Source of the DNA: a virus
Lineage: Duplodnaviria > Heunggongvirae > Uroviricota > Caudoviricetes
Strand: one strand, 5' to 3'
IMG/VR virus record: IMGVR_UViG_2713896833_000003
Coordinates: 1 to 14,385 of that record
Length of the DNA stretch: 14,385 nt
The translations under genes were made by a program, and so were the position numbers. The notes under the pieces are model-generated. The model was not told where the DNA came from and made no database searches. It worked only from the letters and a program-made list of their open reading frames with translations. Shown here one piece after another: positions 65 through 1,733 of the stretch; position 1 is the first letter of the stretch; each line of letters begins with the position of its first letter.

Positions 65-1629
65 TATAAGAATCCGCTTCTAATTCAAAGCATTACCCCA
101 TCAACACTGCGCTCACACGTCCCACCACATCAAAACATGTAAAGCCTTGCAAGTCATTGCGAGGCCTTATGTGTCTCAGTTTTGTCCCACCTTGTATTAC
201 GACTTGCATAGCCAATGAAGATAAATGTGACGACAAACGGCGCAGCAGTCTTCTTTTCCTTCATACTTTCCCCACCCAGCATGCATACCTTCTACCATAA
301 CTGTAGTTAATGTCTGTTATGAGCGAAAAGCGGACATTCCTGTACAAAGCATGGCGTTGGAATACAGTAAGATCATTGATTAATAAGTGAGTCGAATCAG
401 AACAGTAGCCAATGAAACAAAAAATTCGCAAACGTAACCAAGACTGGATATCAAGGCAATTGAAACGTGCGCAAAAGAGGAAATGCCGTTAAGTTTCTTT
501 ATTAACTTTCCCTCAATATGAGCAACTGCTTGTAATGGTGTGCGCCTTAAACGGCATGGTCGTCTCAAGCCGGACTGGAGTCGCGCATTGTTTCATTAGG
601 GTTGGGGAGAAGTGCCTATTGTTGGGCAAAAAGTAGTGTTTACTGGTTTGAGGGATTTGATAAGGAGCAATTGCCTGTTGAATGGGGGCGCTGTGGGAAG
701 ATGCCTGAATATATTGGTTTTGATTTGATCTCACAGTGCAACACACAATCAACTCTTAAAGTCTGCTGTGAGCAAAAATTGCACATTTCTAACAGTCTTC
801 CGTGTGAATCAACGGGGAGCAGGTCACTGGCACAGAGGGGACGTTTAACCCCGTCCGGCCTCCGCTGAATTGGCTGCCAATTCCGTCCGGTCGTACCTGC
901 CTGAGCCGTCTACTTCAGTAAAAACTGAATCAGCATAGCAAACATATATACTGTCGCTGCAATTTGTATTGTTCGTACTCCCCATCTGAGATATCGCCAT
1001 TTATGACGTTCTCTGGCATCGGCTTCTTCAATGGTGGATTCAGTATGCTTTCTTCTCTTTGTCCTGAATGGATCAATTACCCATAGGGCAAGAATAAAGA
1101 GAACGATTGTTTTCTGAAGTATGGGATGTTCCACGAAGAGTGACTCCGGCCTGCTCGCTGATACAATCAGAATAGATGAACAATCCCGAAATAATCAACA
1201 CTAAATGTATGGCAATTATTTATTTTCGTCCTGGCTGGACTTTGTGACCTGCTCCCAACAAATTAACATAGCACAATGTAAGCAAGTTCTGCTTTTGGCA
1301 CATAGCAGTCCTAGAGACACTGGCGTAAAGCCATGGAGGATCGGTGGGAGGAGGTAAAAATCCTCTCATGCAAAAAATACGCAAAATCGATAACAGTTGG
1401 AAATCATTCAATACTCGCACTATCGGAAGTTCACCAGCCAGTCGTAGCACGTTCTTGCATACGACGTGGCTACGGTTTCAACTCCCGCCAGCTCCACCAA
1501 TCATGATTGGACGGTGTAAGGGCAACACCAACAAAAACAGGAAGTTAGCAGTCTCAGCAGGACACCGACCAGACGGTGAGGAGACAAAAAAGGATACGCA
1601 AAGGAGCCGCGGCTCTCGAGTGACACAAA

Positions 1630-1656
1630 AGCCCGCTTATGCGGGCTTTTTGTTTT
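1630..1656 (+). terminator. Rho-independent terminator-like hairpin (AGCCCGC-TTAT-GCGGGCT followed by TTTTTGTTTTT)
   Basis: Perfect 7-bp GC-rich stem with 4-nt loop and a long T-run on the plus strand, about 70 bp upstream of the restriction endonuclease gene. Confidence 0.6.
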
Positions 1657-1733
1657 TCCCTTAAGTTCCTAGCCGCTTATCTATAACTATGGAAAAATGT
1701 TAACCCTGACTGTATGTTAACAAAGGGATGTAT

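Follow-up and report, generated by a model that had tools for sequence, protein, structure and literature searches.

The gene-poor arm of a deleted lambdoid prophage as a probable mosaic of attachment-site relics and a composite cassette with fun(Z)-type ends

The fun gene of phage P2 is described in a review as having on either side inverted repeats that make site-specific exchange possible, a statement for which Nilsson 2004 is cited (PMC8987985). Rousset 2022, which deals with the other P2 hotspot, makes no mention of repeats. Junctions that are treated here as ends of this already known but obscure kind occur in a virus record of the Caudoviricetes (IMGVR_UViG_2713896833_000003, positions 1 to 14,385; this whole stretch of 14,385 nt is referred to below as the window), where they delimit a composite cassette of ~0.98 kb (320-1301, plus strand) that is mobile as a unit. 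The window is a lambdoid E. coli prophage with deletions, inserted at a thrW-type transfer RNA (tRNA) site, and the cassette lies in its gene-poor left arm (65-1727), thereby adding a lambdoid-arm case to the known one. The arm is probably a mosaic of an attachment (att) arm, the mobile composite cassette, a tRNA-Pro-like relic and an ssrA-type attP relic with a borrowed terminator. Taken as a whole the finding is real and largely ordinary; its added value is in the boundaries of the cassette and the sharp breakpoints at these boundaries.

In the P2 reference genome, fun(Z) is bounded between G and FI by an L-type (..TGAGCGAGAAGCGGAA..) and an R-type palindrome (GTCCGCTTTTGGCACAGAGTGGAC), which match the motifs at the two ends of the window cassette. 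L and R are related palindromes with shared arms and differing centres; their consensus sequences are GTCCGCTn-TGAGCGA-rrAGCGGAC and GTCCGCTyy-TGGCAC-rrAGCGGAC, respectively. The L site of the window (GTCTGTTA-TGAGCGA-AA-AGCGGAC; 312-335, plus strand) has one mismatch to the consensus, none being obtained by chance in 200 shuffles, and the left breakpoint falls within its TGAGCGA centre (320-326). The R site (GTTCTGCTTT-TGGCAC-AT-AGCAGTC; 1286-1310, plus strand) is an exact match to the R pattern and has the right breakpoint within TGGCAC (1296-1301). L is thus present at one end and R at the other, on the same strand, as in a fun(Z)-type cassette, and one copy of the window cassette occupies exactly the G/FI gap of a P2-like prophage. 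Unlike those of P2, the window sites belong to a lambdoid prophage, in the arm next to its att site. Their cargo is composed of two parts and has a decayed site inside it, and sites of this kind are also present in lambdoid nin regions, on plasmids, in islands and in arrays of several cassettes. A full-text search of a paper collection for the L and R motif strings yielded no paper.

Breakpoints were mapped by setting pairs with a common backbone and different cargo against pairs with a common cargo and different backbones. In the L site, the bases before TGAGCGA track the backbone, be it P2-like, a lambdoid nin region or the thrW arm, and those after it, from +7, track the cargo. The opposite holds for the R site, of which the 5' arm tracks the cargo and the 3' arm the context. 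The switch points in the mapped pairs are confined to the invariant TGAGCGA and TGGCAC centres.

Sites of both types occur well beyond the window. The L motif is present in 66 viral contigs, the R palindrome is widespread in Enterobacterales according to a scan of species genomes, and a 108-nt junction consensus, which is never annotated, has matches in 3018 of 5426 E. coli genomes, the median being two places per matching genome. Around 50 distinct cassettes of 0.6-4 kb, with cargo genes in both orientations, could be delimited in this way. The two short junction patterns can serve to mark out cassettes with accessory or defence genes in plasmids as well as in prophages of the P2-like and lambdoid kinds. 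Where cassettes form arrays, with up to three in a row, L and R alternate on one strand (L-R-L-R) and the linker between TGGCAC and TGAGCG is 33-35 nt long in 14 of 15 cases. Among 20 of the larger cargo proteins are DarT+HD, Macro, TIR-domain, Mrr-like nuclease and fun(Z)-like proteins; a recombinase is not among these 20. Defence-type sister cassettes carry DarT+HD beside a Macro-domain protein (L054:2956-5420), a protein with a TIR domain as in effectors of the CAP12/Pycsar type (L032:1405-2295) and an Mrr-like nuclease (L082:474-1433). A gapped-pattern scan of the viral contigs gave 0 matches to an empty P2-type site, and BLAST of the joined flanks against the 5426 E. coli genomes revealed no empty nin-region site. 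The shortest filler of the nin region is a 255-bp mini-cassette in E. coli A20 (L091:500-775), which has both an L and an R end and in which no gene is obvious.

The window cassette itself (segment 312-1306) was found in 29 of the 5426 E. coli genomes, 26 of which carry at least 80% of it, all at 97.8-100% identity; it is never annotated. With the same end points it is present in at least five unrelated contexts: adjoining an integrase near mutS; in the nin region of lambdoid prophages, between hokD and a DUF977 gene; in the above-mentioned P2-like prophage, where the tail sheath and tail-fibre assembly genes lie on either side of it; on a plasmid; and in the thrW prophage arm of the window. 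A decayed L copy (761-784) splits the cassette into halves that each occur alone elsewhere, the first in strain CU42ET-1 and the second both in the chromosome of a Citrobacter and on plasmids of Klebsiella and Enterobacter. The seam between the halves (761-842, plus strand) is made up of this decayed L site, with five mismatches to the L consensus, a left-end extension (785-826) that matches the ATTGCTAACAGC..GTGAATCAACGGGGAGCAGGTCA end common to many cassettes, and a remnant of an R core (CTGGCACAGAGGGGAC; 827-842). From CTGGCAC onward, the window is homologous to the copies that Klebsiella and Enterobacter have of the small gene discussed below.

The content of the cassette is one dead and one live gene. 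Alignment with an intact open reading frame (ORF) of CU42ET-1 showed the dead gene (412-708, plus strand) to be a pseudogene of a 99-residue phage protein of family phrog_12809 (E = 3.7e-7 for the intact CU42ET-1 protein). Its lesions are 1-nt deletions after positions 472, 626 and 686 and two in-frame stops. A second intact copy of 99 residues, 89/99 identical, is present in locus L079.

The live gene is a 74-codon minus-strand ORF with a GTG start (910-1134), which had been picked out in an earlier sequence-only reading of the window as possibly encoding a small membrane protein or toxin with two hydrophobic helices separated by a basic loop. The ORF and its start have stood up, GGAG being present 9 nt upstream of the GTG, and so has the topology: hydrophobic segments, predicted to be transmembrane helices, are located at approximately residues 5-22 and 53-73, with a charged loop in between. 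The small membrane protein is also supported as the product of a conserved gene, since the frame has been kept under purifying selection in diverged copies and the protein belongs to phrog_25496 (E = 4e-24, residues 5-73 of the 75-position profile). Nine of the 11 homologue clusters are exactly 74 residues long, five DNA copies of 77-80% identity all have 74 codons, and the loop ADARER..WRYLRW is invariant. Comparison of the window gene with four copies at 77-80% nucleotide identity revealed no indels and ratios of non-synonymous to synonymous substitution rates (dN/dS) of 0.29-0.54; in the comparison of the 74-codon gene, 29, 22 and 12 variable sites were at codon positions 3, 1 and 2, respectively. 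The family is small, with 44 representatives among 1.84 billion proteins. Judged by this conservation, 910-1134 is a live gene for a predicted inner-membrane hairpin protein, the basic and highly conserved loop of which probably faces the cytoplasm. Genome pipelines skip this real small membrane-protein gene in E. coli, and its recognition is a gain in annotation.

Type I toxins and other small phage membrane proteins include the Hok-type toxins and the small superinfection-exclusion proteins. The 74-residue protein resembles these in being small, hydrophobic and solitary on mobile DNA and in having a conserved leader. It differs from them in its two helices and its length of 74 residues, and no sequence relation to them was found in Pfam, NCBIfam or PHROGs. 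As most of the identifiable cargo of the sister cassettes is defence-related, one may tentatively guess, by analogy, that it is an accessory membrane protein acting in phage exclusion or envelope modulation. In Citrobacter amalonaticus (L010:5001-8337), a homologue of the 74-codon gene is located 260 nt upstream of, and on the same strand as, a gtrA-gtrB-gtrC-like O-antigen modification cluster.

A toxin of a type I toxin-antitoxin pair, the mRNA of which would be bound in its leader by an antisense RNA, is an unlikely alternative for the 74-residue protein, in spite of its small size and hydrophobic character. The leader (1135-1185, minus strand), which includes the GGAG motif, is at least as conserved as the coding region, with 80-90% identity to the four homologues against 77-80% for the coding region; at greater distance identity drops to 29-67%, and conservation declines on both sides of gene and leader. 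A divergent, plus-strand promoter-like site (GTGACT-16-TACAAT; 1140-1167), from which such an RNA could be made, overlaps the leader in antisense orientation, and the gene stands alone in very different plasmid, prophage and chromosome contexts, as addiction modules do. On the other hand, 74 residues and two helices exceed what is typical of type I toxins, an evident terminator for a short antisense RNA is lacking, the -10 element is weaker in the homologues (TACAAG), and no named toxin family was matched in Pfam, NCBIfam and PHROGs (the PADLOC library was not searched). The dN/dS values of 0.3-0.5 do not discriminate between a toxin and a non-toxin. That conserved non-coding DNA happens to contain a 74-codon ORF here by chance, a reading for which its GTG start and the lack of NCBI annotation in the E. 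coli chromosomes carrying it could be adduced, is extremely improbable in view of the constant length, start and stop position in copies of 77-80% identity, the absence of indels, the third-position bias, the PHROG match and the annotation of the gene as a coding sequence (CDS) on Klebsiella and Enterobacter plasmids.

As for the way in which cassettes of this kind move, the most likely mechanism would be a swap of cargo between replicons through recombination of L with L and of R with R by a recombinase that is encoded elsewhere. The two sites would be incompatible, as in engineered recombinase-mediated cassette exchange, and cargo could in this manner be swapped without an empty site ever being left. 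A site-specific reaction is suggested by the location of the breakpoints in the centres only, combined with the fixed order of the two centre types and the fixed linker. It is conceivable that the L and R palindromes define a general exchange system by which defence and accessory genes, with the 74-codon gene as one piece of cargo, are moved among P2-like and lambdoid phages, plasmids and islands of Enterobacterales. Such an enzyme, should it exist, would account for the hopping of defence genes from one temperate phage to another, unrelated one, and the sharp breakpoints turn the hunt for such a recombinase into a concrete problem.

A number of points weigh against this picture of the arm and its cassette. 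The exchange mechanism is deduced from breakpoints only and the mapped pairs are non-independent events, while the equation of the L and R motifs with the repeats of Nilsson 2004 goes back to the summary given in the review (PMC8987985). The module of the window is irregular, as its first half runs from L to L and its second half from an R-like site to R. Regarding the 74-residue protein, Pfam and NCBIfam gave noise only and hence no family, tblastn against deposited phage genomes gave no match, the AlphaFold model, a plain helical hairpin, has a low confidence (pLDDT 63), and the function proposed above is a guess by association. Lastly, the R palindrome is a dense repeat in Xanthobacteraceae, resembling repetitive extragenic palindromic (REP) elements, which leaves room for recombination at a generic repeat that needs no dedicated recombinase.

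This last scenario, in which RecA or phage Red/RecT-type enzymes would carry out ordinary or short-homology recombination at a REP-like palindrome, is the main rival of site-specific exchange and a possible, if doubtful, one. Palindromes of this family are not confined to phages, since the R unit is found about once per kb, in several loop variants, in loci of Xanthobacteraceae and related Alphaproteobacteria; none of the 20 cargo proteins is a recombinase; and the conserved ends span 40-60 nt, a length sufficient for phage recombinases. Generic recombination does not readily explain why the breakpoints are restricted to invariant centres of 6-7 nt although the arms of the partners are also alike on both sides, nor why each cassette has centres of two distinct types whose order is fixed and the arrays a fixed linker of 33-35 nt.

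In the Alphaproteobacteria, the R palindrome (GTCCGCTTTTGGCACAAAGCGGAC) was seen in Xanthobacteraceae, Pseudolabrys and others (species-genome loci L094-L213, e.g., L158, L137 and L178). In the loci fetched it occurs at ~1/kb, in tandem with hairpins that have the same stem and other loops (CGGGGGT, GACCC), and often directly after genes ending in ..ADEVIE, as a REP-type repeat would. An Rfam family for the hairpin was not found in eight of these loci.

Two other types of mobile cargo invite comparison with the exchange of L/R cassettes. The pdif (dif) modules of Acinetobacter plasmids are thought to be moved by XerC/XerD. Like the L/R cassettes, they are small and free of recombinase genes, have short palindromic sites in alternating versions, occur in many plasmid contexts and form arrays. 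They differ in that the site types of the L/R cassettes are distinguished by their centres and not only by orientation, and in that the latter cassettes reside in phages of Enterobacterales; the GTCCGCT/AGCGGAC arms, when read, are unlike the XerC/XerD half-sites of dif, and a Xer/dif site was rejected on this ground. Integron cassettes with their attC sites share with the window type the promoter-independent mobile cargo, the arrays, the imperfect palindromic junctions and a recombinase outside the cassette, which for the window type is a supposition. The window type has two junction sites per cassette rather than one, cargo genes in both orientations and no integron integrase nearby. An attC site was dismissed as RYYYAAC/GTTRRRY core boxes are absent from the junctions and the sole integrase of the window matches phage families and is located at the thrW end. 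A sigma-54 promoter at TGGCAC was likewise discarded, there being no TTGC at the right spacing. The bottom strand of the R centre, GTGCCAA, resembles the spacer of the R64 shufflon sfx sites.

The 0.98-kb module might also be viewed as a non-autonomous transposon, i.e., a miniature inverted-repeat transposable element or mobile insertion cassette on whose terminal inverted repeats a DDE transposase would act. Its ends are TG...CA and form imperfect inverted repeats of ~45 nt (e.g., TGAGCGAGGAGCGGACATTGCTAACAGC.. versus the right end in reverse complement, TGTGCCAGGAGCGGACGTTACTGACATC..), and one unit is found at many sites. Transposition is very unlikely nonetheless: there is no target-site duplication, the flanks being inverted relative to each other and not direct; empty sites were not found in the scan of viral contigs or in the 5426 E. 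coli genomes; none of the 50 cassettes is an autonomous copy with a transposase; and copies are few, the genomes that have any junction match having a median of 2.

Outside the cassette, the left arm holds little that resembles a gene, as the sequence-only reading had also concluded for the region following the left att repeat. The repeat it had noted is real and perfect (64 nt; 1-64 and 14322-14385, direct), and the longest ORFs of the arm have 106, 88, 79, 76 and 74 codons, the last of these being the only intact gene; ORF lengths in 65-1727 are as expected for non-coding DNA of equal length. Not recorded at the time were the frameshifted pseudogene (412-708, plus strand), a hydrophobic ORF (154-282, minus strand) and the mosaic of att relics and cassette. 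None of eight other ORFs in the arm, including that of 106 codons at 1344-1664, has a PHROG match, and the NCBI annotation of a 99.8%-identical copy in strain KKa014 has no intact CDS in the arm. That annotation includes an 81-nt pseudogene fragment of a 'capsid protein' at window 1376-1456 (minus strand), within the conserved ssrA-type attP arm, a call that is probably due to spurious similarity.

In searches of E. coli genomes, phages and plasmids, different segments of the arm led to different relatives. The pieces would follow one another as the prophage's own att arm (65-311), the cassette (320-1301), the tRNA-Pro-like relic (1311-1375) and the ssrA-type attP relic (1372-1657), so that three att-type relics, thrW, tRNA-Pro-like and ssrA, are present. 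The arm is poor in genes because it was built from non-coding pieces, and a 'junk' prophage arm can thus be read as a series of recombination scars. It is the att-proximal accessory arm of the prophage and, lying between attR and the last of the cargo genes, corresponds to the b region of lambda. Like the lambda b region and its morons, it is situated between attR and late or cargo genes, its content is dispensable and its history that of a mosaic, and it includes a small gene that is self-contained; unlike theirs, its cargo has sequence-specific boundaries that are common to unrelated phage types.

The phage-side att arm (65-311) is common to other temperate phages and always ends at the left junction palindrome. 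It is 86-97% identical to DNA of phage phi458, of several E. coli 'plasmid' prophages (circular records) and of a b-region segment of phage 21, and in loci L039 and L044 it is followed by other cargo. Within it, the hydrophobic ORF at 154-282 (minus strand) is a candidate gene for 42 amino acids (MLGGESMKEKKTAAPFVVTFIFIGYASRNTRWDKTETHKASQ), with a GGGGAA motif resembling a ribosome-binding site 4 nt upstream. It is in frame with its homologue in phage 21, annotated as 'putative membrane protein' CPT_21_32, because the single indel between the two is one of 3 nt. A hairpin at 144-165 overlaps the stop of this ORF; read on the plus strand, it is located ~80 nt beyond the att core and, once the phage is circular, downstream of int, as a lambda tI/sib-like element is.

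Beyond the cassette, 1297-1475 is similar to b-region DNA of HK629, HK630 and phage 21. The first part of this region (1311-1375, plus strand) is a decayed tRNA-Pro-like 3' half and an older att relic. It aligns with the ..CATGGGGTGTCGGGGGTCGGAGGTTCAAATCCTCTCGTGCCGACCA segment found 3' of R sites in loci L029 and L078, where it is better preserved, and with the b region of phage 21; the segment is presumably the 3' half of a tRNA-Pro. ARAGORN detected no full tRNA in the loci carrying a segment of this type.

The phage arm of an ssrA-type attP follows (1372-1476, plus strand). It is also present in two E. coli 'plasmid' records, which are probably circular prophages, between int/dinI-like genes and the same restriction-modification (R-M) module as that of the window. 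The att core (1477-1499, plus strand) is identical in 23/23 nt to the 3' end of K-12 ssrA (TTCAACTCCCGCCAGCTCCACCA), and its counterpart in phage LLS is annotated as 'tmRNA pseudogene / attP' (tmRNA, transfer-messenger RNA). The next ~158 nt (1500-1657, plus strand), including the terminator at 1627-1657, are a copy of the native DNA downstream of ssrA, collinear with the ssrA/ypjA intergenic region. Segment 1478-1654 was matched in 4173 of the 5426 E. coli genomes, at ~89-93% identity and mostly under an 'ssrA' feature. In strain EC17GD31, which has no prophage at ssrA (smpB-ssrA-[intergenic]-ypjA), the match covers the end of ssrA and the entire ssrA-ypjA intergenic region; in K-12, it is at the ypjA-proximal end of CP4-57, a position read as attR. 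The window (1477-1657) thus resembles the attR of CP4-57 and the native locus in being collinear with it at 89-93% identity, terminator included. It differs in being away from ssrA/ypjA and inside the thrW prophage, with a phage arm before it and R-M genes after it; this displacement makes it a relic of the attachment site of another phage. No tmRNA body was found in the window, either as an ARAGORN fold or as an Rfam match. The att is called a relic because no cognate integrase adjoins it, in contrast to the situation in L007 and phage LLS.

The R-M genes appear to have come along with this block. The region upstream of the restriction endonuclease gene (1658-1727, plus strand) is near-identical to that before the same gene in L007, L008 and KKa014, and 1372-1727 precedes the same gene in two other records, with the order integrase, DinI-like gene, segment and endonuclease in L007. 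These arrangements indicate that the ssrA-type block (1372-1657) arrived together with the R-M module that follows it.

The strong plus-strand terminator that the sequence-only reading had placed at 1630-1656 was recovered at 1627-1657. It has a stem of 10 pairs, 6 of them G-C (1627-1636/1641-1650), a TTAT loop and a TGTTTTT tail to 1657. The 73-nt terminator stretch has a folding energy of -29.6 kcal/mol (z = -3.4 versus shuffles). With a G+C-rich hairpin directly followed by a T/U tract, it is predicted to be an intrinsic (Rho-independent) terminator, and a run of A residues before the stem means that the hairpin could terminate in both directions. The alignment to the native ssrA locus is collinear through the terminator, and one compensatory stem pair, GCCCAC/GTGGGC in the native locus versus GCCCGC/GCGGGC in the window and phage LLS, is in agreement with a hairpin kept by selection, this being the only covarying pair. 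By its homology the terminator is that of the ssrA/ypjA intergenic region, which a phage integrating at ssrA had in its attachment region and which came to the window with the R-M module; the orphan element is accounted for as borrowed chromosomal DNA. In the donor phage it would end both the tmRNA gene rebuilt upon integration and int-side transcription; in the window, its sole effect could be to shield the R-M genes against read-through in the leftward or rightward direction.

Two explanations had been put forward earlier for this terminator. The remnant of a decayed gene is partly correct: the terminator is the tail of the ssrA relic (23 nt of ssrA and 158 nt beyond), and a dead gene does exist at 412-708. 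A small RNA (sRNA) ending at the terminator is not supported, as no Rfam family reached its threshold and the homology to the DNA downstream of ssrA explains the terminator without a local gene or sRNA. A locally made sRNA, such as a plus-strand transcript of ~480 nt from the promoter-like site at 1140-1167, is accordingly quite unlikely. This site (GTGACT-16-TACAAT) has an upstream TG and is followed on the same strand by the strong terminator. The interval between the two is made up of unrelated att relics of differing origin, the 130-nt flank upstream of the terminator is covered by the same native homology, and promoter-like sites are not enriched, with 2 found versus 3.6 expected in shuffled sequence. 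In a permissive Rfam search of the whole window, the best matches in the arm were STnc350 (27.1 versus a gathering threshold of 60), CssrB (23.6, E = 0.29, versus 76) and RsmY (19.1 versus 57). The CssrB match is to the hairpin of the ssrA-type attP arm only, and those of STnc350 and RsmY are similarly limited to a hairpin.

Regarding the prophage as a whole, the left att repeat (1-64) consists of the 3' part of a thrW-type tRNA gene, on the minus strand, and 21 additional nt; the copy at 14322-14385 matches the 3' part of the Rfam tRNA model on the minus strand with a score of 27.8 bits. A complete tRNA or tmRNA gene was not detected in the window by ARAGORN. The assignment of the att site to thrW is inferred from a CGT anticodon loop and the flank with paoD and a LysR fragment in strain KKa014. 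The integrase gene (13162-14325), the product of which matches phage integrase families, is the only one of the window and is located at the thrW att end. Also encoded are CI-like and CII-like regulators, an O-like replication protein and the type II R-M pair.

Lysis and structural genes were not found in the window, from which all late genes are gone. Strain KFu021 is, like KKa014, a carrier of the left arm. In KKa014, the same left arm (99.8% identical) and R-M module are followed by lambda-type tail genes; it is the absence of late genes from the window and their retention as tail genes in this relative that led to its designation as a deleted lambdoid prophage. Region 4817-5958 is a deletion scar. 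It contains a chimeric ORF (5272-5958, minus strand), in which pieces matching RusA-like, HNH and methyltransferase families are joined, and an ORF at 4817-5356 (plus strand) that has a partial match to a PHROG profile of unknown function only and is shorter than the KKa014 gene annotated by NCBI as LEM-3-like GIY-YIG. The O-like replication gene (6772-7713, minus strand) contains four iterons spaced by 15 nt (approximately 7338-7415). An Rfam match to 'mir-5880' at this position is a false positive caused by the iteron repeats. The iterons within the O-like gene mark the phage origin.

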